Of a stretch of 26,386 nt of DNA, positions 1 to 22,339 are shown in pieces. Position numbers and translations under genes: made by a program. Origin of the DNA: Alphaproteobacteria bacterium (lineage in GTDB: Bacteria > Pseudomonadota > Alphaproteobacteria > UBA7887); the NCBI GenBank assembly GCA_965216755.1, contig CBDCGL010000008.1, forward strand, positions 1 through 26,386. Reading direction: 5' to 3'. Each line of letters opens with the position of its first letter. Positions within the stretch are counted from its first letter, which is position 1. A model generated the notes under the pieces. That model saw only the letters and a program-made list of their open reading frames with translations. It did not search any database and had not been told where the DNA came from.

Positions 1-103
1 TAAATTTCCGGCTGTCCCTCAACCAGTTTTCGGGCAGCCAGGCCGACATTGGCATCTTGCCGGTTTTTGCACCGCCGCGTGGGAGGTCGTCGAGGACGCT
101 CAT
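1..103 (-). CDS. traG: 5' end of TraG/VirD4 coupling-protein gene, cut by window edge
   Basis: Identical to 15735-15837 (MSVLDDLPRG...). Confidence 0.8.
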   Translation of the reverse strand, partial: MSVLDDLPRGGAKTGKMPMSAWLPENWLRDSRKF

Positions 104-399
104 GACAGTCTCCGTGTCTCGGGCCGCAACAAACAGCGCGCAATATGGCAAAACTGGTTTGCCCCATATTTGCCCGCTGATGCCGGTCTGATGATCAGCG
201 CCCTACCGGAGGGCACTCACACATTCACGCCATCTGGGGGCTTCTCAGGGCCAAACACGCCTATATCCGTGTCCGCCGAGGGTGCGGTAAAATGCAAGCC
301 GATGGGTGTCGTGATTATGTCTCGACTATCGGCGCGCGCCGATGGGTTCATGGCGTCAAAGCGTTAATCATTTGTATGATGATGTTTGGTACGCTTTGA

Positions 400-592
400 G
401 CAAGTTGTGTGTTGTGGCCCATAAATGGGCCATCCCCTGCGGGGACAAGCAACACGAACTTGCCAAGGAGGGCCCGCTGCGCGCCCTCCGTTGGATCCTC
501 CCCGGCTTGGTGCTGCCGCCCTGGCATCGAGCCAGGCCAGCAGCACGGCACCGTTTCGTCGGTGCATCACGACCAAGGGTAGCGCCCCTTGG
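400..592. other. Candidate oriT region
   Basis: Lies between divergent traG and mobC. Outer IR gcaagtt..gtgttg / caacac.aacttgc (400-463) encloses hairpins tggccca-taaa-tgggcca and tcccc-tgc-gggga; further hairpins ggagggc/gccctcc and ccaaggg/cccttgg follow. Confidence 0.55.
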
Positions 593-621
593 ATGGCTTT
601 CATTGGGCGGAGGTGTTGCCC

Positions 622-1017
622 ATGCCACGACCGCGCAAAGCCAACGGCCGCTCCTTCCAGCTCAAGGCCCGTTTCACGGCCACTGAGCTGGAAGCCGTCA
701 ATGCCCGTGCTGCACACACGGGCATGACGGTTAGCGACCTGCTTCGCCACGGCGTGCTGGACAACCCCCCGCCCCCGACCCGCCTTCATCGCCGGGTCCA
801 ATGTCCGGAGGAATTGGCCCGGCTGCTTGGGCAGGTCGGCCGCATCGGCAATAACGTCAACCAGCTGGCCCGTATTGCCCATGCGGGATCATGGCCTGAT
901 AGCGAGCGCATCACCCAGGCCGTCGCCGACATCCAGTGGATGCGCGCCCGGCTGATGGATGCGCTCGGCTATGATCCGGTGGACAGTGATCCCCCTGCCC
1001 CGGTTCTTACGCCATGA
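622..1017 (+). CDS. mobC: MobC relaxosome accessory protein (RHH)
   Basis: RFTATELEAV...GMTVSDLLR and signature RIGNNVNQLAR; GGAGGT RBS before ATG 622; ATGA overlap with relaxase. Confidence 0.9.
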   Translation: MPRPRKANGRSFQLKARFTATELEAVNARAAHTGMTVSDLLRHGVLDNPPPPTRLHRRVQCPEELARLLGQVGRIGNNVNQLARIAHAGSWPDSERITQAVADIQWMRARLMDALGYDPVDSDPPAPVLTP

Positions 1018-2414
1018 TCATCACCGCTTCAGAAATCGAGGCGCGCAAATGGTTTGCCGTGCACCTGCTCAACACCACTCAGAATGATCATGTTGAGGTG
1101 CACGAGCTGCGCGGCTTTGCGTCTGTCAGCCTGAACGGTGTCATGATGGAAATCGCCGCGGTGGCCAGTGGGACCCGCTGCGAAAATCCGGTCTTCTCTG
1201 TGGTTCTCAACCCGCCGGATGGTGTCACGCTCACCTATGAGCAGTTCCACAACGCCATCCGGGAGGTTGAGAAGGCCAACGGCTTGCAGAATCATCCCCG
1301 CGCCGTGGTGTTCCATGAAAAGGACGGTGAACGCCACTGTCACGTGTTCTGGTCGCGGATCGACATTGACCGTATGAAGGCGATCAACCTTCCCTTCTAC
1401 AGAAAAAAGTTGCAAACCATTAGTCGGGAGCAGTTCCGCGCATTGGGCGTGGAACTGCCGCCTGGTCTGGTTGATCCGCGTGAACGCAACCCGCTGAATT
1501 TCACCCGCGAGCAGTGGCAGCAGGCCAAGCGCATGGGTGAAGATCCCCAGGCTCTAAAACAGGTTTTCTTGGAAGCCTGGCAACACAGTGACAGCCGCAA
1601 AGCCTTCCAAGCCGCTTTAGAGCGCAGTGGCCTCTACCTCGCCCGGGGCGACAAGCGCGGCTTTGTTGCCGTCGATTTTACCGGGTCGGTTTATTCGCTC
1701 TCGCGTTGGTTATCGGTGAAGAAGAAGGATATTGCCGCTCGCATCGGTGATTTGGCGGAATTGCCGACCGTCGATCAAACCAAGGCCTTGATCTCCGACA
1801 AATACACCCCTGCCCTGCGCAAAGCCGTTGATCAGATGGAGACGCAGCACAAGGAAGAGCGCCGCGTCTGGAACCGTGAGGCCAAGCAAATGCGGCGTAC
1901 TCACCGCGCCGCCCGCCAAGACCTTGTCACCGACCAGCACGCCCGCCGGCGACGCGAAGAGCATGCCCGTGCTGATTGGTACCGCAAAGGTCTGCGCGGT
2001 CTTGTCGACCGGTTTACCGGCCGCCACAAGGTGACGACCACCCGCATCCGCCGCGACCGGGCCGCCGCGGAAGAGCGCGACCGTCAGGAGCGGGACAAGC
2101 TCATCGCTGCCCAGCTCACCGAACGGCGGCAGGTTCAGGAAAATATCGATAAGCTGGAAGCCAGCCACATCCGCGACCGCAAGCGTATGCGCGAACGGCT
2201 GGGCGTTCTGTTTGAATTTGAGAATGACGACAAGCGTAATATCGCCCTGCAGCATGCCGCCGAGGTCGCCGCCCGCAAGGAAGAGCACCGCATGGCCCGC
2301 GAATTTAATCAGGCTGACAAGGACCGCACCATGGCCGACCAAATCCGCGACCAGCAGCAGGAGCAGGATCGCGGCCGTGGTCCAGATCGTGGACGGGAAT
2401 TTGACCCGAGCTGA
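1014..2414 (+). CDS. Relaxase/mobilisation nuclease (MOBP-like), charged coiled-coil C-terminus
   Basis: FSVVLNPP motif II, HEKDGERHCHVFWSRID HUH motif, LARGDKRGFVAVD; follows mobC. Confidence 0.92.
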   Translation: MIITASEIEARKWFAVHLLNTTQNDHVEVHELRGFASVSLNGVMMEIAAVASGTRCENPVFSVVLNPPDGVTLTYEQFHNAIREVEKANGLQNHPRAVVFHEKDGERHCHVFWSRIDIDRMKAINLPFYRKKLQTISREQFRALGVELPPGLVDPRERNPLNFTREQWQQAKRMGEDPQALKQVFLEAWQHSDSRKAFQAALERSGLYLARGDKRGFVAVDFTGSVYSLSRWLSVKKKDIAARIGDLAELPTVDQTKALISDKYTPALRKAVDQMETQHKEERRVWNREAKQMRRTHRAARQDLVTDQHARRRREEHARADWYRKGLRGLVDRFTGRHKVTTTRIRRDRAAAEERDRQERDKLIAAQLTERRQVQENIDKLEASHIRDRKRMRERLGVLFEFENDDKRNIALQHAAEVAARKEEHRMAREFNQADKDRTMADQIRDQQQEQDRGRGPDRGREFDPS

Positions 2415-2420
2415 TGGTTG

Positions 2421-2859
2421 ATGATTGATCCCGACAAGCTGACATCCGAACAGCAAAAGGCTTTGGATAACCTCGGCCGCCGGCAGGCCGACGAAAGGCG
2501 CGTTTTACAACAACAGCTTAGAAGCTAGGGAGCAATCGAAACTGCGGTCCCTGGCTAACCAGGTCACCAAAACGCTGTTATTCAAAGATCGGGAGGCCCG
2601 CAAAGAGGTTGAAAAATTTTTCGCCGATCAGCGTAAAGAGCGCACCTGGCATCAAGAGCGACTTGCCCGTGTCCGGGACCGCCACGCTGATGAATGGCAG
2701 GCGCTTTACGATCGGATTGCGTTGCAGGGCGACCGCGAAACCAGCCGAACCCACGCGGAAGACATCCAGCGGGAATTTAACCGTCACGATCAGGCGCGCG
2801 GCTATGCAGAGGAATTTACCAGGACCGCCAGGGACGACGGCGGCCACGGCCGCGATTGA
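2421..2859 (+). pseudogene. Coiled-coil mobilisation-associated ORF (~145 aa) split by a +1 frameshift
   Basis: ATG 2421 MIDPDKLTSEQQKALDNL...QQQLRS* (TAG 2526-2528); +1 frame from 2518 reads LEAREQSKLRSLANQ...REFNRHDQARG...GGHGRD* to 2859. Confidence 0.7.
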
Positions 2860-2956
2860 TATTCACGATGTTCAAGATGTGGTCGGTTACCTGTCCCAAA
2901 GCTAACACCGCCTCCGCTAGCAGGACAGGATCACCGCGACCCAGGCTACAAGATAT

Positions 2957-2965
2957 TGTGGATAA
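2957..2965 (-). promoter_or_regulatory. DnaA box upstream of repA
   Basis: TGTGGATAA = TTATCCACA, perfect consensus. Confidence 0.65.
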
Positions 2966-3015
2966 CTTTGTCATATGCACTAAAACTGGTGCCCGATCTT
3001 TGCTAGATTGCGGCC

Positions 3016-3996
3016 ATGGCGGCAGGACATCGACAGCACCGGCGCAAGTCGGGAAAAACAAGCTTTCAGACCATCGGACAGGTTCAGAATTTCCGGGATT
3101 TCTCCGACCCGGCGGTTTTCAAGCTTCTTGATGCCGGAGAGGAAATCCGGCAGCGCCCGGAACCGATTCCGTCGGACAAAGCGTTTCTGACGAAGTACCT
3201 CGTGCAAGTCACACTGCCCCACTCCAACCCCGGCAATGGCGTTCCGGTTTTCCGGCGCAAGAATGGCGACATCACCCTCACCGTCACCCCGGCATTTGAC
3301 GATAACAACCAGCCGCTACACCCTTACGGCACCGTTCCGCGGTTGCTTCTATTTTGGTTAACCCGCGAAGCGTTGCGGCAAAAATCCCATCGAATCGAAC
3401 TCTCCGATAGCATCAACGGCTTTCTGCTCGACCTCGGAATGAACCCCGCAAACGGGAGCGGCAAGCGCAGCGACGCGCGGCGTATGCGGGATCAGATGGA
3501 GCGGCTTTTCCGTGCCCGAATCAGCATCGATGCTAAGCTCAAAGATGGCACCAGATCAGGTCATGCTTGGCAGGATATGCAGGTCGCCAAGGCGGCTACA
3601 ACGTGGTGGGATTACAAATGCCCGGAGCAAGGCAGTTTCTTCGACAGCTGGGTTGAGCTGGACCGGGATTTTTATGAAGCAATCCTGAGCGACCCAGTGC
3701 CAGTTGATATGCGGGCTTTGCGGGAGCTTAAACGCTCACCCATGGCCCTCGACCTCTATGCCTGGGCCACCTATCAAACTTTTGTGATTACGCGTCGCGG
3801 CAAGGGACGCAAGGTTCCCTGGCGGGGGCTAATGCAACAGCTTGGCGCTGAGTATTCTGACTACAAGGATTTTAGGAAAGCCGCCATACAAGCCCTCAAA
3901 AAGGTCCAAATGGTCTTCCCTGGGCTGTTGATATCCGATGCCACGGGTGGCTTTGTTATCCACCCCAGCCAGCCGAGCATCCTTCCCAAAGAGTAG
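3016..3996 (+). CDS. repA: Plasmid replication initiator (RepA_C-like)
   Basis: VTLPHSNPG, PYGTVPRLLLFWL, PVPVDMRALRELKRSPMALDLYAW motifs; iterons directly downstream. Confidence 0.88.
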   Translation: MAAGHRQHRRKSGKTSFQTIGQVQNFRDFSDPAVFKLLDAGEEIRQRPEPIPSDKAFLTKYLVQVTLPHSNPGNGVPVFRRKNGDITLTVTPAFDDNNQPLHPYGTVPRLLLFWLTREALRQKSHRIELSDSINGFLLDLGMNPANGSGKRSDARRMRDQMERLFRARISIDAKLKDGTRSGHAWQDMQVAKAATTWWDYKCPEQGSFFDSWVELDRDFYEAILSDPVPVDMRALRELKRSPMALDLYAWATYQTFVITRRGKGRKVPWRGLMQQLGAEYSDYKDFRKAAIQALKKVQMVFPGLLISDATGGFVIHPSQPSILPKE

Positions 3997-4038
3997 GAAC
4001 ATCAATAGTTTCCGCACTGCCTGTGGGCCGTTTATGGC

Positions 4039-4299
4039 TCATCCACAGTTCTCGCCGTGACTTGGGATATCTTTGGTTATCCACGATGAAACGGTCCCCC
4101 CAGCCAACCAGGTGGGATGAAACGGTCCCCCTTTTCTTATATTTCCCGGTATTTCAAGGCGTTGTTCTACGGTGAAACAGTATCCCCTCGCCAACCAGGT
4201 GGGATGAAACGGTCCCCCCCTCCTGGGATGAAACGGTCCCCCCTACCTATAGATAGATCCTTAAAAGGCCTGTAGTTGCCACCCCGCAACTGTGGACAA
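4039..4299. other. Replication origin with near-consensus DnaA boxes
   Basis: tcatccaca 4039-4047, ttatccacg 4077-4085, tgtggacaa 4291-4299 flanking the iterons. Confidence 0.7.
4085..4242 (+). repeat. Iterons GATGAAACGGTCCCCC (4 perfect, 1 degenerate)
   Basis: Copies at 4085, 4116, 4203, 4227; degenerate ggtgaaacagtatcccc at 4171. Confidence 0.88.
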
Positions 4300-4407
4300 C
4301 CAACCCACGGACACTTGGTATCAACGTCTTTTTTTTGTTGCGGCCCCCACGCCTTCGGCGTGCCCGCCGCCTCCCCTCCCTGGAAGGTCCCTCAGGCTCA
4401 CCAAAAA

Positions 4408-4575
4408 CAGGGACACCGCCTGTTCTCTGATCCACCTTCGGGTGATTGATCTCCTATGCCGGACAGAACCTTCATGCAAGGCACGCTTCGCTCTTTGGCC
4501 TTGCATGAAGAACCATGTCCAACATGGCCGGAGAAATCACCCGAAGGCGGCTCCGAGAACAGGCTTATAGCCCTG
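4408..4575. other. Long imperfect palindrome (~170 bp); possible single-strand initiation signal or structured RNA
   Basis: Nested pairs caggg/ccctg, gcctgttctc/gagaacaggc, ccttcgggtgatt/aatcacccgaagg, ggaca/tgtcc, ttcatgcaagg/ccttgcatgaa. Confidence 0.6.
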
Positions 4576-4685
4576 GTTGCGTGGAGAGATTGCTTTGTCT
4601 GCAAGGGGGTGTATGGGCTGGCATTGTGCCCAAACGATATCTCTAACCTGACTTAACCATCCGAGAATGAAACCCAAGCGCCCGG

Positions 4686-4842
4686 ATGTGAAAGTATGAA
4701 GATCATAAGTTATGATATGATGTTCATACTTTGTGATCGTCATAAATATGAAGTTGCGTGCCTAAGCGAATCATCTCATACTGTATGAAGATATGATCTT
4801 CATATCATAAGTTCACATAGTATGAGGTTATGAACGTATGAA
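4686..4842. repeat. AT-rich TATGA/TCATA repeat tract; putative centromere/operator
   Basis: More than 10 direct and inverted TATGA(A/T) motifs directly upstream of the par genes. Confidence 0.72.
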
Positions 4843-5083
4843 GGCCGTCAAAACTGTCGACCTTGGTCAAACATCGCAAACTGATCCGTTCCTGAAAGCC
4901 GTTGCCGTCGAAAAAGCGGCTGCTGCTGAGATGGTACGGAAAACCTTCAATCTCGAAAAACGCCATCAGAACCAAATCAACGCTGTAGCGGCTGATCTGT
5001 CAGAGACAGCCGGAAAACCCATAGGCGCCTCCGAAGCGTTGCGCCACATCCTGGATGAAGCCGCCGGGAAGGTGGGCTCATGA
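4838..5083 (+). CDS. Small putative centromere-binding protein (RHH-like)
   Basis: 81 aa, VRKTFNL strand then helices (ASEALRHILD); ATGA-coupled to parA. Confidence 0.7.
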   Translation: MKAVKTVDLGQTSQTDPFLKAVAVEKAAAAEMVRKTFNLEKRHQNQINAVAADLSETAGKPIGASEALRHILDEAAGKVGS

Positions 5084-5721
5084 AAGGTGTTGCTTTCCTG
5101 GGCGACAAAGGCGGTGTGGGCAAGACCTCTTTAGCCCACGCTTTGGCGCTTGGTGCCGCATGGAAGGGCGTGCCAGGCTACTTGATGCATACAGACAACC
5201 GGGAACCGCTCAAAGTAAACGGCAGGCCGTACGCCTATTACGATGCCCGCGACCCCAAAGATCTGGAAACCCTTATCAAAACGGCCCTGAATAATGATGG
5301 GTTGTTTATCGTTGATGGTGGTGGGAACCGGCCGGAATTCGACAAATGGATTGCCGCCAGCATGGATTTGGTGCTGGTGCCGTTCATCCCCGATGAAGAA
5401 GCTATAAACACCAATCTGGCTCATATGAAGCGACTGGAACGGGCAGGGGCGAATGTTTGGGCTATCGTGAACGCCTACCCTGGAAGCCGTTTTGAGCGCC
5501 AGTATGTTGATCGGGAGCTACTGAAGGATCTTCCGCAGGACCGGATTCTTGCCAGGGTCCCGGAAGTGAAGGCCGTCAGAACACTGCGTGCCAGTGATAA
5601 ACCAGTGTTCAAAACGCCGCCGACGCGGGTCAACGATCTGTCCCGGAAGCTCTACCTGACGGTAAATCAAGCTCTACTTGCAATTGATCGGGCAGCAGAG
5701 CCCACCCGGCTGTCAGCATAA
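5080..5721 (+). CDS. parA: ParA-family Walker ATPase (short, type Ib-like)
   Basis: KGGVGKTS deviant Walker A, FIVDGGG Walker B, DLVLVP. Confidence 0.9.
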   Translation: MKGVAFLGDKGGVGKTSLAHALALGAAWKGVPGYLMHTDNREPLKVNGRPYAYYDARDPKDLETLIKTALNNDGLFIVDGGGNRPEFDKWIAASMDLVLVPFIPDEEAINTNLAHMKRLERAGANVWAIVNAYPGSRFERQYVDRELLKDLPQDRILARVPEVKAVRTLRASDKPVFKTPPTRVNDLSRKLYLTVNQALLAIDRAAEPTRLSA

Positions 5722-5780
5722 CCAACATCCGTGCTTAGAGAAATATTTTGTAAGCTATTTATTTTCTGTACAATGCCAGG

Positions 5781-6284
5781 GTGTACTGGACCTATGGCAT
5801 TGTTGACCCTGTAACCGGTCTGTTCGTCTATATCGGGCAGACCAGCGATTTCGATCGGCGCAAATCCCAACATCTCACTGACCGGCTGCGTAAAACGACG
5901 CCGGCGCGCGGCAGCATCCAGGAATGGCTGCGCGACATGCGGAAGAGGGGGCTGGAACCGGATTTCGTGATCCTGGAGATCGTCGAAACCGAAGAAGAAA
6001 GCTTGCTATCGGAAAGCAAATGGGTCGAGAAATTCGCCGCGATTGGCCACCCGTTATTGAATCGCTGGCAAGAGCATCGAGACCTGATCCGGCAAGGCCG
6101 GGCCTCACAATATGAAGCGCTGATTTTTCAAGACGGCAAGGCATGCAGGGTAGGGGAGGCCCGTCCCAATCGGCGCAACTCAGGCTTTGCCGTTATGCTG
6201 GATAAAGACGTGAAGATAGAATTCGACGGCATGGTTCTGGAAGGGGCGCGGATTGACGTGTTGGAGCCGAAGCCGGAGGCCTAA
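5781..6284 (+). CDS. GIY-YIG nuclease-domain protein
   Basis: YWTYGI...YIGQTSDFDRRKSQH...E...LLN motif order; GTG start. Confidence 0.82.
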   Translation: MYWTYGIVDPVTGLFVYIGQTSDFDRRKSQHLTDRLRKTTPARGSIQEWLRDMRKRGLEPDFVILEIVETEEESLLSESKWVEKFAAIGHPLLNRWQEHRDLIRQGRASQYEALIFQDGKACRVGEARPNRRNSGFAVMLDKDVKIEFDGMVLEGARIDVLEPKPEA

Positions 6285-6586
6285 CTGGATGTGGCGTCTG
6301 GCTGAACACGCTTTACATTCTTGGTGATTTCGCGCTCGCGTTTGCGCGTTTCGGCAAGATCATAAGCCATTTGCAGACGCATCCACATTTCGGGTGTACT
6401 GCCAAACGCGGCGGCCAACCGGAATGCCATTTCGGCTGAAATCCCGGAACGACCGTTGAGCAAATTGCTCAGCGTCTGACGGTTAACACCCAGCACCTCA
6501 GCCGCTTCGTTGACACTCATGCCAAGTTCTTCAATGCAATCCTGCCGGACAATTCTGCCCGGGTGCGCGGGGCTATGCATAGGCAT
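6281..6586 (-). CDS. higA: HigA antitoxin (HTH)
   Basis: HPGRIVR...AAEVLGVNRQTLSNLLNGRSGISAEMAFRL...WMRLQMAYDL. Confidence 0.95.
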   Translation of the reverse strand: MPMHSPAHPGRIVRQDCIEELGMSVNEAAEVLGVNRQTLSNLLNGRSGISAEMAFRLAAAFGSTPEMWMRLQMAYDLAETRKREREITKNVKRVQPDATSS

Positions 6587-6600
6587 CGTTCTCTCCTTTC

Positions 6601-6879
6601 CTAATGGTAATCGATCAGATCAACATCTGTGGCTTCACCGTCGCTGAAGCGGAAAATGATCCGCCAATTGGCTCGCACGGTGACGCTCCAAAATCCTCTC
6701 AAGTCGCCCGTCAACTTATGGAGGCGGTAACCCGTCACATCGATATCGTCGATGGTCAGGGCCATATCGAGGACAGACAGGATATTCTCAATCCGGTCGG
6801 CCATATCAGCCCTGACCCGGCTTCTGTCACCGCGCTCATACAGGCGTTTCAATCCCCGATGACGGAACGATCCAATCAT
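6601..6879 (-). CDS. higB: HigB toxin (RelE family)
   Basis: MIGSFRHRGLKRLYE...LHKLTGDLRGFWSVTVRANWRIIFRF...DYH; toxin-first order. Confidence 0.95.
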   Translation of the reverse strand: MIGSFRHRGLKRLYERGDRSRVRADMADRIENILSVLDMALTIDDIDVTGYRLHKLTGDLRGFWSVTVRANWRIIFRFSDGEATDVDLIDYH

Positions 6880-6885
6880 ACTTTC

Positions 6886-6914
6886 AGTGTACAGTGATAA
6901 TTATCGCTTATCAA
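6886..6914 (-). promoter_or_regulatory. higBA sigma70 promoter with palindromic operator
   Basis: TTGATA-17 nt-TACACT; palindrome GATAATTATC in spacer. Confidence 0.7.
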
Positions 6915-7135
6915 GAAGAAACTTATTATTTGCATAGCTAATGTTTTGTGGGTACCGTTAATTTTGTCAGCTGCAAATTCAGCTGATCGGGTTTCACAGC
7001 TCGCGCAAGCCGGCCTTTGTATTGGCCGGATGGCGGCGAAATACGGCCTCCGGCTCAATACGCCGCACTGTGCTTGCGCAGTTGTGAACGTCCGGCCACC
7101 AGTGCCGGACGGATCATTAAACCGCAAGGCGCGGG

Positions 7136-7339
7136 ATGGAAATGCCGAAAGAAGATATTGATACAGCCGTCGTTCAAGCTTTTTTGAGGCAAGTTGAGGT
7201 CATGGCCGGTGCCGAGGGGCGGGAGCTGCTATTGCTGTTTATGGCGATAAGAGACCAGCAGCTTCGTGATGATGTTGTCAGATTTGCAGAGGCTATCGCC
7301 AGCGAAAAAGGGTGGTTAGCCAAGGACGACCGAAAATGA
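7136..7339 (+). CDS. Small helical protein resembling the C-terminal part of XRE regulators
   Basis: EGRELLLLFMAIRDQQLRDDVVRFAEAIA; ATGA overlap with next ORF. Confidence 0.65.
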   Translation: MEMPKEDIDTAVVQAFLRQVEVMAGAEGRELLLLFMAIRDQQLRDDVVRFAEAIASEKGWLAKDDRK

Positions 7340-7524
7340 GCACCACTAAGGTTTTCTATGAACTGCCGCCCGGATTGCCGATAGATCAATTCAGCATCGA
7401 CGTCACAAGCGATGAGCTGACATTTTTGATGGGCGATGACGCCGTTGTCGAAGCTGAACCGGGACGATTTGAGTTTACGGATTTGGGCAAAGACCGGATA
7501 CGGGAAGCGCCCGACCCGGAATAA
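7336..7524 (+). CDS. Small acidic hypothetical protein (62 aa)
   Basis: ATG 7336 overlaps upstream stop; MSTTKVFYELPPG... Confidence 0.6.
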   Translation: MSTTKVFYELPPGLPIDQFSIDVTSDELTFLMGDDAVVEAEPGRFEFTDLGKDRIREAPDPE

Positions 7525-7633
7525 TCCGCTTGTAAGTCGTCTGGCGAGCCAGGCGCAGATAATGGGGGGCATACTAACCGTGCAGGACGTTCGCTTCCCA
7601 AGGCTGGGTTGACCGAGTTCTGCTTTTTTGTGC

Positions 7634-7661
7634 CAGTGCGATAACTGACATTATGGACAGT
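7634..7661 (-). other. dif-like 11-6-11 recombination site A
   Basis: cagtgcgataa-ctgaca-ttatggacagt; reverse complement shares ccataa-tgtc..-ttat with site B. Confidence 0.55.
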
Positions 7662-7701
7662 TCTTTGTCGCTCCCATCAGCGTATCCCGACGCATTCTTT
7701 G

Positions 7702-7889
7702 AACCGACGGAGACAGAATAACACCGTGCTCGCGGCTTCCGTCCGCTGCGAAACAGAAGGGTTGCTAAGCTCCTGTCGTCGCTAAGCCAACCCATAACCG
7801 TTTCGTTCGGCTACAGCCACTCCGCGCGGTGTTATTTCGGAGATTGTCGGCTCCGGGGGAATGTCAGGCCTTCGTCTCACCAAGGGAAT
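7702..7889 (+). repeat. Left ~188-bp inverted repeat with internal hairpin
   Basis: Reverse complement of 11025-11211, 7 substitutions + 1 indel. Confidence 0.93.
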
Positions 7890-7979
7890 GGACGTTTAAG
7901 GCTTAAGTCATCAACACGCTAGGTTGAGGTCAATTGTCAAGCGCGTTTCTTGCATATCATTTTTCAAAAAGTGACTAGC

Positions 7980-8114
7980 TCACCAGATTAGAAGAATTTC
8001 GATTTTTTTTAATAAGGCCACAATCCCGATCCCGACCGCCCCGACGATCGCTACGATATCCCTTAAGATAGATGTCAGAAGGCTCAACTGCTCTAACCAG
8101 TCCATCGTTGGCAT
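7980..8114 (-). CDS. 44-aa hydrophobic peptide (possible small membrane protein)
   Basis: MPTMDWLEQLSLLTSILRDIVAIVGAVGIGIVALLKKIEILLIW*; below ORF-track cutoff; weak RBS. Confidence 0.4.
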   Translation of the reverse strand: MPTMDWLEQLSLLTSILRDIVAIVGAVGIGIVALLKKIEILLIW

Positions 8115-8175
8115 GTGGGAACGGAGTGCAACCCCTTCAATACGGTGTATTGGCTGATCCTGAAGACTGAGCCAT

Positions 8176-8211
8176 TCAAATCCCGATCTTCTCGACCTCG
8201 TCGAGGGTGAC
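8176..8211 (-). repeat. Diverged duplicate of the recombinase 3' end (VTLDEVEKIGI*)
   Basis: 31/36 nt identical to 8955-8990 (VTLDEVERIGI*), same orientation. Confidence 0.88.
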
Positions 8212-8236
8212 AGGACTCAAGACCGGCCCAACACCG

Positions 8237-8947
8237 TTAAGGGACAGGCCGCGGCCATGTGCTTGCAGGTCCAAGGGAGCCGTGCACAACCGATTCAGTT
8301 ATGGCCGCAACAAGGTGTTTGCCATGAAACTCTAGGAACCACATGGTCCCCAACGGAGCATCATCGGCCCGGGCATACATATAGCGAAACTGTATTTCAC
8401 CAACTGAACCAGCACTGCAGTACTTCCCATATGCTCGAATTAGTTCCGGGACGTTCTGGGAATTATAACCTTGGGCAAAGATCTGAAATTTCACAGCCGG
8501 ACCCAAAGGTTCGCCATAGCAGTGATAGAAAAGGCCGCGGACCACTCTTTCAATGAAAGCGTTGTGGGTGGCGACGGACAAAGGGACCACGCCAGCGCAT
8601 CCTATAAGCACGCCGCCTTCTGATCTAACGTCAACTTCACGAAGCCGGCCCAACACTGCGCGGTTTATGCGCTGGTTATGTCTGATTGTCGGTAGAGCGT
8701 GATTTCTCCAAAAAGCTTTGCTTTCTGGCGTGTTGACGCCTACCAGCAAACTCAGCGCCACTCGGAATTCTTCGTCGATATCAGAAAAGCCTTTGTTGCA
8801 CGGGCGACAGGCCGGCACCGTTATCATGTTGCTCGGGCGCGGCTTCACAAACACGGATCTTGGTGGCACATGATCGCCTTTTCCCGGATGTGCTTGCCGA
8901 GTGCCGCAGTAGGCACATTTGTCACTTTTTGGCCGCCGGGAAACCAT
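8237..8947 (-). CDS. HNH-endonuclease-like protein
   Basis: CAYCG...DHVPP...VPACRPCN zinc/HNH pattern; starts 7 nt after recombinase stop. Confidence 0.8.
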   Translation of the reverse strand: MVSRRPKSDKCAYCGTRQAHPGKGDHVPPRSVFVKPRPSNMITVPACRPCNKGFSDIDEEFRVALSLLVGVNTPESKAFWRNHALPTIRHNQRINRAVLGRLREVDVRSEGGVLIGCAGVVPLSVATHNAFIERVVRGLFYHCYGEPLGPAVKFQIFAQGYNSQNVPELIRAYGKYCSAGSVGEIQFRYMYARADDAPLGTMWFLEFHGKHLVAAITESVVHGSLGPASTWPRPVP

Positions 8948-8954
8948 CAGCTAC

Positions 8955-9956
8955 TCAAATCCCGATCCGCTCAACCTCATCCAGGGTGACCTGGTCGTTT
9001 GTGCGGTCGTAGAGCTGCGTGGTCCGCGGGCTTTCATGGGCCGCCATCATTTGAGCGTTTTCCAAGGTGCCGCCGTTCTCCCTATAGGCAGTGATCCCGG
9101 TGGCCCGGAAGCTATGGCAACTGATCGGGGTCGCAATACCGGCCTGCCGCGCGCGTCGCTTGACCATATCTAAGGCCATCCGCCGCTTCACAGGTTCTGC
9201 TGTGAGCGGGCCATTGCGCCACGGCACACTGCGGAATAGCCACCCTTTCTTGTCGCTGGTGATACAAGCGGCGTTGATATAGGCGTCGAGGTAGTCTTCC
9301 AGTGAATGGTGGGCCGGGATTTCGTGGAACTTGCCACCCTTTTCATGAAGGCGGAGCCACCAGCGTTTGCCGGCTGGATAGTAGTCTTCAACCCGCATGC
9401 TCAGGGCGGCGCTCACCCGCGCAAAGCTGTAGATCATCACGCCAATAAGGGCGCGATCCCGCAAGCCGGTCACCGTATCTGTTGGTATGCTATTTAACAG
9501 CTGCCGCGCTTCATCGACGCTTAGTACGGGCGTTTTGCCCCGCTTGACCTTATGGCTGGGTCCGCGGACGGCATGCGCCGGATTGAACGGCAGGACGCCG
9601 CCGGTGACCAGCCAATCGAACAGCGCGCGGATGGCGGCCAAATGCTGCTTCACAGTCGGAGCCGGGCGCAGATGGGTCTGCTCCTCAATGAACACTGCGA
9701 TATGGGTCGGCTGGATATCCTCCAGCCGGCACAGCCGATTTGCTTCACACCAGGCAAAGAACCCTGCGGCGGCGCGGCCATAAGCGGCCCGGGTGTTAGC
9801 GTTGCGGATATTGGCAGTGAAGAACTCAATGAAGCGCCGGGTGGCCCGGTCGCCGTCATCAGCGATGATTCCGGGCACAATCAGCCCGGTCTGTGGATTG
9901 GCCCCGGCGATCAACGCCGGGTCACCTTGCTGCAGTTGAAGGTCGTGTGAAGTCAT
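8955..9956 (-). CDS. Tyrosine recombinase/integrase
   Basis: Catalytic R (FARVS), K (EKGGK), HxxR (HSFR), H (AHES), Y (QLYDR); likely start ATG 9956 (MTSHDL). Confidence 0.95.
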   Translation of the reverse strand: MTSHDLQLQQGDPALIAGANPQTGLIVPGIIADDGDRATRRFIEFFTANIRNANTRAAYGRAAAGFFAWCEANRLCRLEDIQPTHIAVFIEEQTHLRPAPTVKQHLAAIRALFDWLVTGGVLPFNPAHAVRGPSHKVKRGKTPVLSVDEARQLLNSIPTDTVTGLRDRALIGVMIYSFARVSAALSMRVEDYYPAGKRWWLRLHEKGGKFHEIPAHHSLEDYLDAYINAACITSDKKGWLFRSVPWRNGPLTAEPVKRRMALDMVKRRARQAGIATPISCHSFRATGITAYRENGGTLENAQMMAAHESPRTTQLYDRTNDQVTLDEVERIGI

Positions 9957-9997
9957 AATAGCCCCCGAATATTGCCTTAACGAAATGACGTAATAAA

Positions 9998-10025
9998 GAC
10001 ACCCATAATGTCCTTTATGACCGTC
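9998..10025 (+). other. dif-like 11-6-11 recombination site B upstream of recombinase
   Basis: gacacccataa-tgtcct-ttatgaccgtc; both arms read GACnnnCATAA. Confidence 0.7.
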
Positions 10026-10137
10026 TTTCAGAGTACACCAATTAGCCGGCAAAGGGGAGGGTGGTCACCGACAATATCCAGAGATAGTTTCCTGATGACT
10101 ATGGAACGGGCCGCTCGGCAAACACATCTCTTGAGAA

Positions 10138-11037
10138 ATGACAGATCGTCCTGAAGCGATTTTTTTTGAGATTAGGCAGGCCCTCGACTTCTTTCTCTAT
10201 CCGGTTTGGCAATTCTTAAATTCCGATTTCGCTGCAACGTTATTAGCGACTTTGGTAGCAGCGTTCGCGGGTGCTTTTGGCGCGCACGTAATTATCGAAA
10301 AGACCAAGCGCAAGCAGGAGCAGCAGCGGGAGCTGCGCATCACAAACGCGGCGATAATGGTATCAGCGGATATCTGCAGTCTATTTCTTAACCTCAAAAG
10401 ACAGCATGTAAAAGATTTAAAGCAGAAATTTCAAGATGATATCGAGAATTACGCCATAGTGAGCGGCCGCAGTCAAAAAAAAGGTTGGCCAGGGCAAATA
10501 TTTATTCTTCAGTCCAATCTTACTACATTGGATCCGGTAAGAATACCAGGAGAGATACTTGTTAGGCAGGTTTTCGAAGATATTTCGCCTGGACAAAGAG
10601 CATATACACTCACGAACACCCTTATAAGATCTGCCCATTCCCTAAATAGATTTATCAATCTTCGGAACGAATTTGGTCAAAAAATGAAAGGTTTGGATAA
10701 TAATGATATTTGCAATCTCTATTTGGGTCTTCCAGACGAGCAAGGTCATGTGGATCGGACCTATACAGATTCTGTAAAGCATATTTGCAATCTCACAGAC
10801 GATTGCATCTTTTTCAGCAAAACACTCACCAATGATTTGGTAGAACACGGCGAGCTGCTAAAAACCCGCCTGGGTAAAGGCGCTCCGAGAGTGAATAAGC
10901 CGAACTTCAGCAACGCTGAGAAAGAAGGCCTGGTGCCTGACCTACAACGACATAAAGACTGGTTGGGAATGTTTGTTAAGCATGACAGCCTTGAGCCCTC
11001 ACGGCGATCGAAACTATTCAGCCTATTCCCTTGGTGA
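10138..11037 (+). CDS. Hypothetical protein, N-terminal TM helix, AT-rich cargo
   Basis: 299 aa; FAATLLATLVAAFAGAFGAHVII then basic/coiled segment; stop codon lies inside the right IR. Confidence 0.85.
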   Translation: MTDRPEAIFFEIRQALDFFLYPVWQFLNSDFAATLLATLVAAFAGAFGAHVIIEKTKRKQEQQRELRITNAAIMVSADICSLFLNLKRQHVKDLKQKFQDDIENYAIVSGRSQKKGWPGQIFILQSNLTTLDPVRIPGEILVRQVFEDISPGQRAYTLTNTLIRSAHSLNRFINLRNEFGQKMKGLDNNDICNLYLGLPDEQGHVDRTYTDSVKHICNLTDDCIFFSKTLTNDLVEHGELLKTRLGKGAPRVNKPNFSNAEKEGLVPDLQRHKDWLGMFVKHDSLEPSRRSKLFSLFPW

Positions 11038-11211
11038 GACGAAGGCTTGACATTCCCCCGGAGCCGACAATTTCCGCAATAACACCGCGCGGAGGGGCTG
11101 TAGCCGAACGAAACCGTTATGGGTTGGCTTAGCGACGAAGGAGCTTAGCAACCCTTCTGTTTCGCAGCGGACGGAAGCCGCGAGCACGGTGTTATCCTGT
11201 CCCCGTCGGTT
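11025..11211 (-). repeat. Right ~187-bp inverted repeat with internal hairpin
   Basis: Reverse complement of 7702-7889. Confidence 0.93.
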
Positions 11212-11362
11212 GTTATCCTCGTCATTTTTGCCCCGCACGATGCTTTTCGTTTGCCGCCGGAGTCCACGTTGACCAAGGTCATTCTTGAAGAAGTGCTAAC
11301 GCACGGTTTTTTCACACCCCTACCCCCCCGTTTCTTTTTAAGGGGAAGAAGGAAGGTGCACG

Positions 11363-11623
11363 ATGGGTCATGGTGACCCGGATTTGATCCTCATGGCTGC
11401 TGATCCCACGGCGGAAGACCCCAACAAACTGATCAAGGTTGCCTCCGGCGATCTCTGGCGCAATGGTCGCGGCGGTGAGCTGATTTTTGAGACCGATGAC
11501 CCGCGCATCAAGCAGCTGGTTTTCGAATCGCAACGTGTCGTCTTGCTATTTGGCGATGATGCCTGGCCATCAAAGCGACCAACGCGCAAGCGGCCCTATA
11601 GGCGGTCACACCGCGATCACTGA
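11363..11623 (+). CDS. Hypothetical protein (86 aa)
   Basis: Purine-rich RBS gaaggaagg; converges on next ORF without overlap. Confidence 0.55.
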   Translation: MGHGDPDLILMAADPTAEDPNKLIKVASGDLWRNGRGGELIFETDDPRIKQLVFESQRVVLLFGDDAWPSKRPTRKRPYRRSHRDH

Positions 11624-11626
11624 CCC

Positions 11627-12028
11627 TTATTGCGCCCCGAATGCTCGCGTGATGTTTTCGGCTCTGGCCATTTTTGACCTGTCGCGGGCTTCTGCCCTTA
11701 CCGCCACCGCGATTGCCTTGTCAATTTTCCGGTCATAGTCGTCACGGACGACCTTTGCCCGCTTCTCCGTCTCTCGCGCCTGGAACACGATACAGTCGAT
11801 GTCGATCTCGATGTCGGAAGGAAAGGGTTGGTCGTAATAGAGTGACTTGTTGCTCCAGCGGTTGTGGAGTCGGTCGTTGGCTTCACGATGCGTTCGCTCG
11901 ATCACTTTCAGGAGTGCCCTATCCCTTTCATAATACAGATTTCTTACGTGCTGTTTGGCCGTTTCGTTACTAAGCCGCGCGATCTGGGCTTGGCGCTTCA
12001 CTTCCGCATCTCTGTTGTAAAGGCTCAT
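11627..12028 (-). CDS. Hypothetical helical charged protein (133 aa)
   Basis: GGAG RBS; coiled-coil-like composition. Confidence 0.7.
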   Translation of the reverse strand: MSLYNRDAEVKRQAQIARLSNETAKQHVRNLYYERDRALLKVIERTHREANDRLHNRWSNKSLYYDQPFPSDIEIDIDCIVFQARETEKRAKVVRDDYDRKIDKAIAVAVRAEARDRSKMARAENITRAFGAQ

Positions 12029-14316: not shown

Positions 14317-15837
14317 TCACGCCGGATCGAATTTCCCCTCAAACAAGGCGTGACGGTCGTATTTGATGCGCTGGATGATCGCCGGCGGCAAGCTTGGCGT
14401 GATCACCACGGCGCGTTGTTGTGGGTCATCTCTTCCCACGAATCTGGAAACTTCCTCGGGTCCTAAAAGGTCGGTTTGTTGATACGACAAGTTGTCACCA
14501 GTCACCCCGTGTTTTCGCTGTTCAATAGATGGGTCGGATTTGGAAGGAACTGCAACGGTCGTCTTACCCAGCCGCTTGGCGATGTACTCCAAAGTGGTCG
14601 GGTCGTTGTTGCCGAAAAAGACTTGTGTGCCGCTATTGCCTAAGAACGTCTCATAGCTGGCCCCATAGAGCCGTTTGATCTGCGCTAGGTCTTGCAAAAT
14701 GAGGAGCAGCTTACAGCTGTAGCCCGCTATTAATCCGGCAGCGGTCTCGATTTGCCGCATATGGCCCAGCACCGCGAATTCTTCCAAGCACATCAGCACC
14801 GGGACCGCCGGCCGAGCGTCCTCCGCCTCCATCATGTCGAAGACCTGGTTTATGAACAGCCGCAGCCAGCGTGCACAGCTCGACATCTTCGACGGCGGCA
14901 GTACCAGGTAGATGGTCGTTGGCTTGCGCTTGAGATCGGCCAGATCAAAATCATGCCCTGACACCACATTTTGGATTTCCGGGTACCTCAGGAATTTCAG
15001 GTGCCGCCGCATGGTCGACAGCACCGACCCGCGCTCCGCTTTCGGCCGGTCGAAAAATTCATCGCGGGCGTCAAGGACAGCCCCTTTCAGCCGGTCTGGG
15101 AAGAGGCCCATTTGGTGCCGCAGCGCCGGCAAACCTTGTAGCTCTGACCCGTCGTTGCAGGTGTGAACGTTTTGCGGGGTCAGCAATTTGAAGATGGTCG
15201 CCAGATTCCGTTCATGGCTGTGGCCGGGGTAGGTAGCCGTTTGCAGGATCAAACCTTCAATCCCGGCGGTGGCGCTGTCGTCCCAATGCGGGTCTTTGCC
15301 GTCACCGCGCACCACAATGCCGTCGGCCAGTGACGCTGCATTAGCGATCATTTCCGGTTTTTCTTCGCCGGGAAAATCTTCCGGCAGGTGCGCCAGGAAG
15401 TTAAAGCGCCGGCGATAGTCCTTCACGTGCTCATGGGTAATTTCAAACGGGTCAAGGATATGCACATCCTGGCCCAGGGCGGCACGCCGCCGCGCCGTGA
15501 TATTGGCCAGCTCCCCTTTCGGGTCGATGACCAAGGTAGACCCCGCATATTCCAGCAAAGTCGGTACGATAATGGAGCGGCCTTTCCCCGCCCGGCTGGC
15601 ACAACACACAATCGCGTGGCGATCGTCGCCCAAGCCTAGCGGCTTGCCGCCGCTCACCACGTATTCGCGTGCTTCTTCATCGAACTGACAGGTACCGTCG
15701 ATCACACCCAGGAACAGCTTGGCGTTGTTGAACGTAAATTTCCGGCTGTCCCTCAACCAGTTTTCGGGCAGCCAGGCCGACATTGGCATCTTGCCGGTTT
15801 TTGCACCGCCGCGTGGGAGGTCGTCGAGGACGCTCAT
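14317..15837 (-). CDS. traG: TraG/VirD4-family type IV coupling protein
   Basis: Walker A ASRAGKGR, VIDPKGEL, WDDSA, Walker B LEEFAVLG, ILQDLAQIKRLYG; GGAGA RBS before ATG 15837. Confidence 0.92.
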   Translation of the reverse strand: MSVLDDLPRGGAKTGKMPMSAWLPENWLRDSRKFTFNNAKLFLGVIDGTCQFDEEAREYVVSGGKPLGLGDDRHAIVCCASRAGKGRSIIVPTLLEYAGSTLVIDPKGELANITARRRAALGQDVHILDPFEITHEHVKDYRRRFNFLAHLPEDFPGEEKPEMIANAASLADGIVVRGDGKDPHWDDSATAGIEGLILQTATYPGHSHERNLATIFKLLTPQNVHTCNDGSELQGLPALRHQMGLFPDRLKGAVLDARDEFFDRPKAERGSVLSTMRRHLKFLRYPEIQNVVSGHDFDLADLKRKPTTIYLVLPPSKMSSCARWLRLFINQVFDMMEAEDARPAVPVLMCLEEFAVLGHMRQIETAAGLIAGYSCKLLLILQDLAQIKRLYGASYETFLGNSGTQVFFGNNDPTTLEYIAKRLGKTTVAVPSKSDPSIEQRKHGVTGDNLSYQQTDLLGPEEVSRFVGRDDPQQRAVVITPSLPPAIIQRIKYDRHALFEGKFDPA

Positions 15838-16355
15838 GACAGTCTCCGTGTCTCGGGCCGCAACAAACAGCGCGCAATATGGCAAAACTGGTTTGCCCCA
15901 TATTTGCCCGCTGATGCCGGTCTGATGATCAGCGCCCTACCGGAGGGCACTCACACATTCACGCCATCTGGGGGCTTCTCAGGGCCAAACACGCCTATAT
16001 CCGTGTCCGCCGAGGGTGCGGTAAAATGCAAGCCGATGGGTGTCGTGATTATGTCTCGACTATCGGCGCGCGCCGATGGGTTCATGGCGTCAAAGCGTTA
16101 ATCATTTGTATGATGATGTTTGGTACGCTTTGAGCAAGTTGTGTGTTGTGGCCCATAAATGGGCCATCCCCTGCGGGGACAAGCAACACGAACTTGCCAA
16201 GGAGGGCCCGCTGCGCGCCCTCCGTTGGATCCTCCCCGGCTTGGTGCTGCCGCCCTGGCATCGAGCCAGGCCAGCAGCACGGCACCGTTTCGTCGGTGCA
16301 TCACGACCAAGGGTAGCGCCCCTTGGATGGCTTTCATTGGGCGGAGGTGTTGCCC

Positions 16356-16751
16356 ATGCCACGACCGCGCAAAGCCAACGGCCGCTCCTTCCAGCTCAAG
16401 GCCCGTTTCACGGCCACTGAGCTGGAAGCCGTCAATGCCCGTGCTGCACACACGGGCATGACGGTTAGCGACCTGCTTCGCCACGGCGTGCTGGACAACC
16501 CCCCGCCCCCGACCCGCCTTCATCGCCGGGTCCAATGTCCGGAGGAATTGGCCCGGCTGCTTGGGCAGGTCGGCCGCATCGGCAATAACGTCAACCAGCT
16601 GGCCCGTATTGCCCATGCGGGATCATGGCCTGATAGCGAGCGCATCACCCAGGCCGTCGCCGACATCCAGTGGATGCGCGCCCGGCTGATGGATGCGCTC
16701 GGCTATGATCCGGTGGACAGTGATCCCCCTGCCCCGGTTCTTACGCCATGA
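16356..16751 (+). CDS. mobC: MobC (copy 2)
   Basis: Same translation as 622-1017. Confidence 0.88.
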   Translation: MPRPRKANGRSFQLKARFTATELEAVNARAAHTGMTVSDLLRHGVLDNPPPPTRLHRRVQCPEELARLLGQVGRIGNNVNQLARIAHAGSWPDSERITQAVADIQWMRARLMDALGYDPVDSDPPAPVLTP

Positions 16752-18148: not shown

Positions 18149-18154
18149 TGGTTG

Positions 18155-18593
18155 ATGATTGATCCCGACAAGCTGACATCCGAACAGCAAAAGGCTTTGG
18201 ATAACCTCGGCCGCCGGCAGGCCGACGAAAGGCGCGTTTTACAACAACAGCTTAGAAGCTAGGGAGCAATCGAAACTGCGGTCCCTGGCTAACCAGGTCA
18301 CCAAAACGCTGTTATTCAAAGATCGGGAGGCCCGCAAAGAGGTTGAAAAATTTTTCGCCGATCAGCGTAAAGAGCGCACCTGGCATCAAGAGCGACTTGC
18401 CCGTGTCCGGGACCGCCACGCTGATGAATGGCAGGCGCTTTACGATCGGATTGCGTTGCAGGGCGACCGCGAAACCAGCCGAACCCACGCGGAAGACATC
18501 CAGCGGGAATTTAACCGTCACGATCAGGCGCGCGGCTATGCAGAGGAATTTACCAGGACCGCCAGGGACGACGGCGGCCACGGCCGCGATTGA
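18155..18593 (+). pseudogene. Frameshifted coiled-coil ORF (copy 2)
   Basis: Same CAG CTT AGA AGC TAG break as copy 1. Confidence 0.65.
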
Positions 18594-18750
18594 TATTCAC
18601 GATGTTCAAGATGTGGTCGGTTACCTGTCCCAAAGCTAACACCGCCTCCGCTAGCAGGACAGGATCACCGCGACCCAGGCTACAAGATATTGTGGATAAC
18701 TTTGTCATATGCACTAAAACTGGTGCCCGATCTTTGCTAGAATTGCGGCC

Positions 18751-19733: not shown

Positions 19734-19821
19734 GAACATCAATAGTTTCCGCACTGCCTGTGGGCCGTTTATGGCTCATCCACAGTTCTCGCCGTGACTT
19801 GGGATATCTTTGGTTATCCAC

Positions 19822-19979
19822 GATGAAACGGTCCCCCCAGCCAACCAGGTGGGATGAAACGGTCCCCCTTTTCTTATATTTCCCGGTATTTCAAGGCGTT
19901 GTTCTACGGTGAAACAGTATCCCCTCGCCAACCAGGTGGGATGAAACGGTCCCCCCCTCCTGGGATGAAACGGTCCCCC
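19822..19979 (+). repeat. Iterons (copy 2)
   Basis: As 4085-4242. Confidence 0.85.
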
Positions 19980-20576
19980 CTACCTATAGATAGATCCTTA
20001 AAAGGCCTGTAGTTGCCACCCCGCAACTGTGGACAACCAACCCACGGACACTTGGTATCAACGTCTTTTTTTTGTTGCGGCCCCCACGCCTTCGGCGTGC
20101 CCGCCGCCTCCCCTCCCTGGAAGGTCCCTCCAGGCTCACCAAAAAACAGGGACACCGCCTGTTCTCTGATCCACCTTCGGGTGATTGATCTCCTATGCCG
20201 GACAGAACCTTCATGCAAGGCACGCTTCGCTCTTTGGCCTTGCATGAAGAACCATGTCCAACATGGCCGGAGAAATCACCCGAAGGCGGCTCCGAGAACA
20301 GGCTTATAGCCCTGGTTGCGTGGAGAGATTGCTTTGTCTGCAAGGGGGTGTATGGGCTGGCATTGTGCCCAAACGATATCTCTAACCTGACTTAACCATC
20401 CGAGAATGAAACCCAAGCGCCCGGATGTGAAAGTATGAAGATCATAAGTTATGATATGATGTTCATACTTTGTGATCGTCATAAATATGAAGTTGCGTGC
20501 CTAAGCGAATCATCTCATACTGTATGAAGATATGATCTTCATATCATAAGTTCACATAGTATGAGGTTATGAACGT

Positions 20577-22325: not shown

Positions 22326-22339
22326 CGTTCTCTCCTTTC

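Follow-up and report, generated by a model that had tools for sequence, protein, structure and literature searches.

An inverted pair of hairpin-plus-tail elements on a small mobilisable plasmid of the Alphaproteobacteria

The origin of the IncQ plasmid RSF1010 contains ssiA and ssiB, two priming hairpins that are paired and oppositely oriented. Many origins of transfer (oriTs) consist of a hairpin followed after about 10 nt by a conserved sequence, an arrangement that is strand-asymmetric. In integrons, the stem ends of attC sites follow the consensus RYYYAAC ... GTTRRRY, and in enterobacteria the ERIC/IRU sequences are intergenic palindromes that form rods. The described class nearest to the element reported here is that of the Frpo/ssi hairpins, which serve IncF and IncI plasmids as single-stranded DNA (ssDNA) promoters and as initiation signals (Masai and Arai 1997, as cited in the available text of PMC11541004). 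For ssDNA-promoter hairpins, the available text of PMC12672017 distinguishes classes 1-3 and gives a screen at below -75 kcal/mol.

Here we describe a locus at which an inverted repeat brackets a tyrosine recombinase gene and each arm of the repeat folds into a long rod. The initial annotation of this locus treated the rod as a candidate noncoding RNA or as an attC-like folded substrate of the recombinase. We find instead that the rod is the middle of a larger plasmid element whose conserved parts are the base of its stem and the tail behind it, and that the recombinase has a candidate site of its own.

The plasmid and its inverted repeat

The window (the whole stretch of DNA analysed, 26,386 nt) is an entire contig of its assembly. 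It is a head-to-tail, or direct, concatemer that holds 1.68 times a unit of about 15.73 kb, with 99.95% identity between positions 1-10647 and 15735-26386, and the laps of the unit differ by five one-base gaps only. We read it as a small mobilisable circular plasmid of about 15.7 kb from a long-read assembly, the concatemer being typical of an assembly artefact. Because the contig is a concatemer, gene counts made on it are inflated. The unit encodes a MobA/VirD2-type relaxase (PF03432), a RepA_C initiator, a GIY-YIG protein, a HigB/HigA pair and a type IV coupling protein, and also gives a weak ParA-like match (CbiA family, 20.2 bits, under the cut-off of 25.4). The iterons of the RepA_C origin lie at 4097-4242, away from the hairpin elements. 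A protelomerase with hairpin telomeres was considered and rejected, since the laps of the concatemer all run in one direction and the palindrome is not perfect.

The inverted repeat is 190 bp long, its arms (7702-7891 and 11025-11211) being 96-97% complementary. Judged by alignment with its relatives, each arm is one copy of a plasmid element of about 175-190 nt that we name 'frame B', and the rod is its middle. The parts of the repeat are as follows.

7702-7891, + strand: left element copy (hairpin and tail), the left arm; covariance model R1 scores 103.4 bits over 7716-7868
7717-7836, + strand: 120-nt rod of the left copy; basal stem AATAACACCGTGC / GCGCGGTGTTATT conserved in the family, interior specific to this plasmid
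7837-7891, + strand: conserved 3' tail with two direct repeats ending GGAATG, at 7856-7863 and 7883-7890
11025-11211, - strand: right element copy, inverted; rod at 11078-11196; R1 scores 97.1 bits
23441-23630, + strand: third copy, an assembly duplicate of the left copy on the second lap of the concatemer

The two genuine copies differ at ten places, four of which lie within the 120-nt core. The core has diverged less (4 changes in 120 nt) than the flanks, which show 4 substitutions in 70 nt and a ragged end. No target-site duplication is present at the arms, where the flanks read TTCTTTG on the left and GTTATCC on the right. Both copies sit between convergent open reading frames (ORFs) and face the 3' ends of genes; the ORFs upstream of them and co-oriented with them, at 7312-7524 (+) and 11627-12028 (-), have no protein-family support. 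Contigs from four public runs break at the repeat, at 7745-7747 and 11166-11168. In its own genome the repeat occurs on this contig only, and it is absent from all 22 genomes of the family.

Rod, basal stem and tail

The rod of about 120 nt that the initial annotation had drawn at 7717-7836 is recovered by structure prediction, with all of the helices that had been listed for it. It is a single imperfect rod of 41 pairs in which 38 of the 120 positions are unpaired. Folded as RNA it reaches -49.8 kcal/mol (z -5.14, with 0/200 shuffles as good) and folded as DNA -25.9 kcal/mol (z -3.41, with 1/200 shuffles as good). For the full 206-nt arm, folding as DNA does not outperform the shuffles (z -0.75 and -1.40). 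The core differences between the copies also fall where the annotation had placed them, namely in the apical loop, in two internal loops, or at a pair converted from A-U to G-U:

7717, A/G: terminal pair, A-U to G-U
7775: indel in the apical loop
7799, C/G, and 7819, A/C: both in internal loops

By our own arithmetic, the chance that at least three of four changes fall in loops is about 0.1, given 38 unpaired positions in 120.

A further proposal was that the G-U pairs are specific to one strand, the left (+) and right (-) strands that point into the module, and this survives only in part. On the sense strand, two G-U pairs (7727·7826 and 7748·7806) form in the left copy and three form in the right, and the fold is unaffected by the core differences (-49.8 against -50.3 kcal/mol). 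However, the antisense strand has G-U pairs of its own and folds as well or better. On the left it carries two such pairs and reaches -60.0 kcal/mol (z -6.1), which is more stable than the sense strand, and on the right it reaches -52.0 kcal/mol as RNA against -50.3 kcal/mol for the sense. The two antisense folds lie 8 kcal/mol apart, positions 7799 and 7819 being G-U-paired in the left one and unpaired in the right. Under DNA parameters, the energies of the four strands are -25.9, -27.9, -26.0 and -26.0 kcal/mol. Across the family, the antisense strand is the more stable as RNA in six of eight hairpins, and the strands are about equal as DNA. In other words, fold energies give no consistent strand preference.

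Neither in nor beside the rods is there a sigma-70-type -35/-10 pair (7500-8300 and 10900-11700 scanned), and a relaxed promoter scan of the sense strand gave 7/12 at best, a score that 281-287 of 300 shuffles also reach. No U-tract terminator follows the rods. Separately, the antisense strand of the tails carries promoter-like matches that point outward through the rod, at approximately 11047-11080 (+) and 7833-7866 (-), as scored against an alphaproteobacterial consensus. The match in the right tail, CTTGAC-N16-CAATTT, scores 10/12 and is reached by 1/300 shuffles, but it was one of eight tests and we do not treat it as established; that in the left tail, CCTGAC-N16-CAATCT, scores 9/12 and is reached by 29/300 shuffles, again as one of the eight.

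Relatives of the element were found through its tail. A sensitive BLAST search with the arm against 72,556 plasmid records returned two weak matches only, both to the 55 nt after the rod, and tails on Acuticoccus and Maritalea plasmids share 81-83% identity with the one in the window. Members were gathered by iterated searches, and the covariance model R1 was then built on the frame. Frame B begins with a basal stem of about 10 pairs that includes a conserved T·G, reading ATCGCCATGC...GCGTGGCGAT in Acuticoccus against AATAACACCGTGC...GCGCGGTGTTATT in the window. The junction motif TGCTCGC follows the 5' arm and CTSCGCG precedes the 3' arm (CTGCGCG in the comparison of Acuticoccus with the window), and between them lies a variable interior that in every case folds on itself. 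Behind a spacer of about 10 bases comes the tail, of about 55 nt, with two GGAAT/GGAAC direct repeats, the shared tail sequence being TGTCGGCTCCGRRGGAATGTC ... CGTCTCNCCARRGGAATG. Both window arms have the T·G stem, the TGCTCGC and CTSCGCG junctions and the two GGAAY tail repeats, the 120-nt rod being the basal stem together with the variable interior of this particular plasmid. Within the plasmid unit, the GGAATG repeat motif is almost confined to the element tails.

R1 matches the window three times (97-103 bits), loci L088, L089, L091, L126, L127 and L129 at 85-118 bits, and L131 at 64 bits. Because R1 was built with the window copies included, the independent evidence for membership is the BLAST match of the tail and the alignment. 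The element is present on eight other replicons, a small sample and all from Alphaproteobacteria; the member plasmids belong to Acuticoccus, Maritalea, Shinella, Neorhizobium, Rhizobium and Devosia, to which L131, of the same class, is added. At a ninth place, on a Rhizobium ruizarguesonis plasmid (L130), the tail stands behind a different small hairpin.

The initial annotation held that the structure is under selection. In a structure alignment of eight rows, made up of both window copies and of six related elements on other plasmids, the sole structure common to all members is the basal stem, in which 95.8% of cells pair, against 14-51% in slid controls. Four of its nine pairs have changed on both sides, in 11 cells, and 0/500 shuffles reach the covariation score. 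Given the small sample and the near-identity of the window rows, we take this covariation as support and not as proof. The T·G wobble, which pairs on the sense strand only, is retained in seven of the eight rows, and this favours the left (+)/right (-) strand. The idea of selection therefore holds for the basal stem, where covariation among homologues was found, and does not extend to the rest of the rod: no structure beyond that stem is shared and the interior is not conserved, other members carrying a branched core, GCAAGGGCTTCGCCCTCCTCCACTGCGTTGCGG, in its place. As far as sequence comparison can tell, detectable constraint within the element is on the stem base and the tail only.

The interior of the rod has no match in the 22 family genomes, in any plasmid record or, convincingly, in metagenomes. 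The initial annotation had also proposed a comparison with Rfam, and no known family was matched: there were 0 matches in the window at gathering scores, and permissive searches left the elements unmatched, both those in 14 related loci (E up to 1) and those in window positions 7400-11500 (E up to 10). We could not find the element described in the literature searched or in Rfam; the papers on ardC and ssDNA promoters that the search returned concern plasmids of the pLS20 type.

Several candidates from wider searches were rejected. A metagenome search with the pattern AATAACACCG-N85-110-CGGTGTTATT gave 23 stretches, by our own estimate about the chance number for 20 fixed bases; they share no sequence beyond the fixed letters and encode no relatives of the module proteins, L012 lying inside a large ORF and L018 and L019 in unrelated high-GC DNA. 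A class-wide BLAST search with the Acuticoccus element matched 38 of 401 genomes (E up to 0.01 per genome), and four of these matches were inspected. L094 and L095 lie in apparent coding sequence, and in L093 the core is found upstream of an ORF. The fourth, L096 (G384:C22), is a chromosomal stretch that has no matching hairpin ahead of it, 81% identical to 46 nt of the tail and about 60 nt from a tRNA-Pro gene; it could be a chance match or a remnant left at an integration site. A tRNA-like reading of the tail was given up as well, ARAGORN having found nothing in the elements.

Neighbouring genes and candidate functions

The segment between the arms contains three ORFs and a short palindrome.

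8237-8947, - strand: HNH-like ORF of 236 aa; HNH_5 at 21.2 bits, under the cut-off; weak PADLOC PDC-M01B matches
8955-9956, - strand: Xer-like tyrosine recombinase; Phage_integrase at 75.7 bits; XerD model at 113.9 bits, under the cut-off
9998-10025, - strand: dif/lox-like 28-bp site, GACGGTCATAA-AGGACA-TTATGGGTGTC; 11-bp arms, 6-bp spacer, ATAA...TTAT
10138-11037, + strand: ORF of 299 aa with no family match; ends 13 nt inside the right repeat arm

PADLOC and NCBIfam scans of the module proteins returned nothing firm. The recombinase likely starts at the ATG at 9956; the ORF extends to 10052, and alignments with homologues begin near residue 33-60 of this longer frame. Its last 11 codons and stop (VTLDEVERIGI) recur beyond the HNH-like ORF with 83% DNA identity (8170-8211 and 8949-8990). 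The HNH-like ORF is thus bracketed by 42-bp direct repeats, which is how an insertion at the recombinase 3' end would look.

The proposal of an attC-like substrate does not stand up to the comparison of recombinase loci. By its model scores the enzyme is not an integron integrase: it scores 30.6 bits against the integron-integrase model TIGR02249, for which the cut-off is 265, and its best models are XerD and XerC, both under their cut-offs. Relatives occur in 128 plasmid records and 57 genome loci, metagenome-assembled genomes included, and 61 loci (L031-L087 and L004-L007) were compared. The core ATAA-NGGACR-TTAT is present in 29 of these. In the window it lies at 10005-10018 (-), within the 28-bp site and 42 nt upstream of the likely recombinase start, and in relatives the palindrome reads TAGTGTAACATAA-AGGACG-TTATGTTACACTA and variants of this, is 28-34 bp long and lies mostly about 50-150 nt upstream of the gene. 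The candidate site at 9998-10025 is probably cognate to the recombinase, and the palindrome of the recombinase family is likely a multimer-resolution site. By contrast, 0/61 loci have similarity to the arms, a long flanking inverted repeat or an R1 match at E below 0.001. Since the element is absent from these loci, a recombinase beside such a rod is a combination specific to this plasmid, and the basis for an attC-like reading is lost. The neighbouring recombinase probably does not use the rod as its target. Because the enzyme has its own dif-like site, the attC reading is not supported, and labels such as transposon ends, attC or proven invertible switch should be avoided for the long inverted repeat.

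The plasmid also carries a candidate for its transfer origin.

16197-16228, + strand (also about 463-494, on the first lap): candidate oriT, a small hairpin with GCGCCCTC, which resembles the MOBQ nick core

The hairpin is CCAAGGAGGGC / GCCCTCCGTTGG, with GCTGCGCGCCCTCC spanning the loop and the 3' arm; downstream of it come a mobC-like ORF (16323-16751) and the relaxase gene. The MOBQ nick core, given as GTGCGCCCT in the available text of PMC3832669, is absent from the repeat arms. Position and motif suggest that 16197-16228 is probably the oriT of the plasmid, which argues that the frame-B element is not the primary one.

On other plasmids, the element occurs as a single copy and has no recombinase near it. 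An ORF or gene of the same orientation precedes every frame-B copy. For five of the eight other replicons (L089, L091, L126, L129 and L131) this is an HTH_36 gene, relatives of which are called 'replication protein A' in some sources, and the element follows it by 50-150 nt; in L088 and L126 genes for a type IV secretion system coupling protein are close by. Four loci with RepA homologues (57-69% identity) lack the element, which is therefore not an obligatory origin, and the repA-like genes that precede the other elements show no homology to the ORFs flanking the window copies.

In their interior the relatives share a core that the window copies lack; it matches 160 plasmid records, 120 of them from Rhizobium. 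In the loci examined (L090, L123, L124 and L125) it lies about 90-130 nt upstream of a co-oriented gene for an ardC-like metallopeptidase. This ardC-linked core occurs without the frame on plasmids of Rhizobium, Sinorhizobium, Brucella anthropi and Shinella, and core-bearing frame-B elements lie upstream of toxin-antitoxin genes. Genes like ardC are typical of establishment regions. The core reads GCAAGGGCT(T/G)CGCCCTCCTCCACTGCGTT(G/C)CGG and sits inside a longer hairpin (L090, L122-L125, L128 and L093, and also Phaeobacter plasmids), without a match in Rfam; the CCTCC within it could pair with GGAGG, the ribosome-binding site of the downstream ardC.

We tentatively hypothesize that frame B is a cis element whose active form is single-stranded and which serves plasmid replication or establishment. 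It would come into play when the DNA is single-stranded, either as the plasmid replicates or once it has entered a cell by conjugation. The hairpin base and the tail would then be recognised by a protein, for instance to prime the complementary strand as an ssi signal does, and with two inverted copies each plasmid strand would carry one functional copy. The single-strand action, and any role in priming or establishment, is what we infer here from a locus whose anatomy, family, basal-stem covariation and separate recombinase site are observed. Our confidence is modest because there is no strand bias in energy and no promoter. That the fold energy does not favour the strand named in the initial annotation counts against the proposal, and so does the fact that the window copies face convergent gene 3' ends and no start of an establishment gene. 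If the element is indeed active as a single strand, a form without sigma-70 boxes points to recognition other than by the host RNA polymerase holoenzyme. Hairpin establishment signals have so far been demonstrated experimentally only in enterobacterial IncF and IncI plasmids; were frame B such a signal, hairpin-based establishment or replication signals would extend to small alphaproteobacterial plasmids. The R1 model provides a marker for unassigned intergenic regions downstream of repA and near ardC or toxin-antitoxin genes.

The same hairpins may instead function in RNA, either transcribed with the co-oriented upstream gene, whose 3' end they would form, or as a small RNA, stabilising or terminating a transcript or binding a protein. 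We regard this as doubtful, though with an appreciable chance of being right. It would explain why frame-B copies follow co-oriented genes, in five cases 50-150 nt after repA, and why both window copies follow co-oriented ORFs (7312-7524, +, and 11627-12028, -); the conserved T·G is a pair on the sense strand only, the differences between copies are neutral for the sense fold, and the CCTCC of the related core has a possible partner in the ardC ribosome-binding site. Yet the rods are not followed by a U-tract terminator and match no Rfam family, the antisense folds at least as well, and the small ORFs upstream of the window copies lack family support. It is also rather improbable that the repeat is an inert relic, a copy duplicated in inverted orientation during a rearrangement whose rod is a functionless palindrome in decay. 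The interior of the rod is found nowhere else, and the copy of the 11-codon recombinase 3' end beyond the HNH-like ORF is a sign of rearrangement, but the frame is conserved across genera with compensatory changes, and the core differs less between the copies than the flanks do.

The position of the arms around a tyrosine-recombinase module invites the explanation that they are substrates by which the 3.1-kb module is inverted or moved, either by the recombinase, acting on the palindrome, a cruciform or an attC- or CTX-like folded strand, or by RecA. The palindrome could in principle extrude as a cruciform from either strand, an 8-mer resembling a half-site (ACCCATAA, 7790-7797) is found in the rod as well as in the dif-like site (a coincidence with a chance of about 0.6% by our own estimate), and 190 bp at 96% identity suffices for homologous inversion. 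We nevertheless consider this explanation unlikely. The recombinase family has its own dif-like palindrome of 28-34 bp beside the gene in 29/61 loci and in the window, and neither the element nor a long inverted repeat at the flanks occurs in any of the 61 homologue loci. The enzyme does not belong to the integron integrases, the 13-bp arms of the rod lie 94 nt apart and are unlike any core site, the repeat arms lack a target-site duplication, and on other plasmids the element is single and recombinase-free. Alternatively, the element might be a secondary or orphan oriT, in which a relaxase recognises the hairpin base and tail and mobilises the plasmid or a segment of it. Its layout is that of many oriTs, the core of its relatives contains TGCGCCCTC or one-off variants that resemble the MOBQ nick core as quoted above, and several carrier plasmids have a coupling protein and no typed relaxase. 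However, the window copies lack that core, the better candidate at 16197-16228 adjoins mobC and the relaxase gene, the rhizobial cores stand in front of ardC, kilobases from where we presume a conventional oriT to lie on those plasmids, and two inverted oriTs would be unusual; taken together, these points make an orphan oriT quite improbable. It is more speculative still, and very improbable, that frame-B elements are folded single-strand ends delimiting exchangeable plasmid cassettes, with a relaxase-like or Xer-like enzyme processing the hairpin base and tail. What suggests this is the shared frame, the differing interiors and an inverted pair that brackets a self-contained recombinase module. 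If it were true, the bracketed segment would be moved or inverted as ssDNA, and it would constitute a new hairpin-bounded mobile cassette, distinct from integron cassettes and from IS200/IS605-type elements.

Comparison with known systems

Like an integron attC site, the rod is an imperfect palindrome of similar length that lies beside a tyrosine recombinase gene and has stem ends of the AAC...GTT form. Unlike attC, its stem ends read GAATAAC ... GTTATTT, of which only AAC/GTT fit and the full R''/R' consensus is not satisfied; there are two inverted copies and not an array in the same orientation, there are no cassettes, and the partner enzyme is not IntI. Core sites of the dif and loxP type have two inverted arms of about 11 bp on either side of a 6-8-bp spacer. 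The resemblance to them belongs to the 9998-10025 site of the module, with its 11-bp arms, 6-bp spacer and ATAA...TTAT. The rod, whose 13-bp arms are 94 nt apart, differs from such sites and is not conserved with the recombinase.

With ERIC/IRU sequences or MITEs, the locus shares an imperfect palindrome of about 120 bp placed between convergent genes. It departs from them in having only two copies, both on this plasmid, in lacking a target duplication, and in being part of a larger unit with an asymmetric tail. The pair ssiA/ssiB of RSF1010 offers a closer parallel in arrangement, as there too a small mobilisable plasmid carries two copies of a hairpin signal on opposite strands. The window copies, however, stand 3.1 kb from each other with genes between them, a plasmid primase was not found, and the iteron origin lies elsewhere.

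The proposed single-strand signal is best set against the Frpo/ssi hairpins. Differences are evident in the stem, which has none of the -35/-10 boxes that define the class and shows no consistent strand bias, and in its stability, the rod reaching about -26 to -28 kcal/mol as DNA with both strands alike (z -3.4), against the threshold of -75 kcal/mol in the available text of PMC12672017. The single-stranded tail with direct repeats that characterises frame B has no counterpart in the descriptions given in the available portions of PMC11541004 and PMC12672017. The window copies, moreover, do not lie upstream of a co-oriented leading-region gene; only the core relatives, upstream of ardC, do. 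What frame B has in common with the Frpo/ssi class is that it is a plasmid-borne intergenic hairpin, conserved more in structure than in sequence, and that relatives of its core are found just upstream of establishment genes, namely ardC and toxin-antitoxin pairs.
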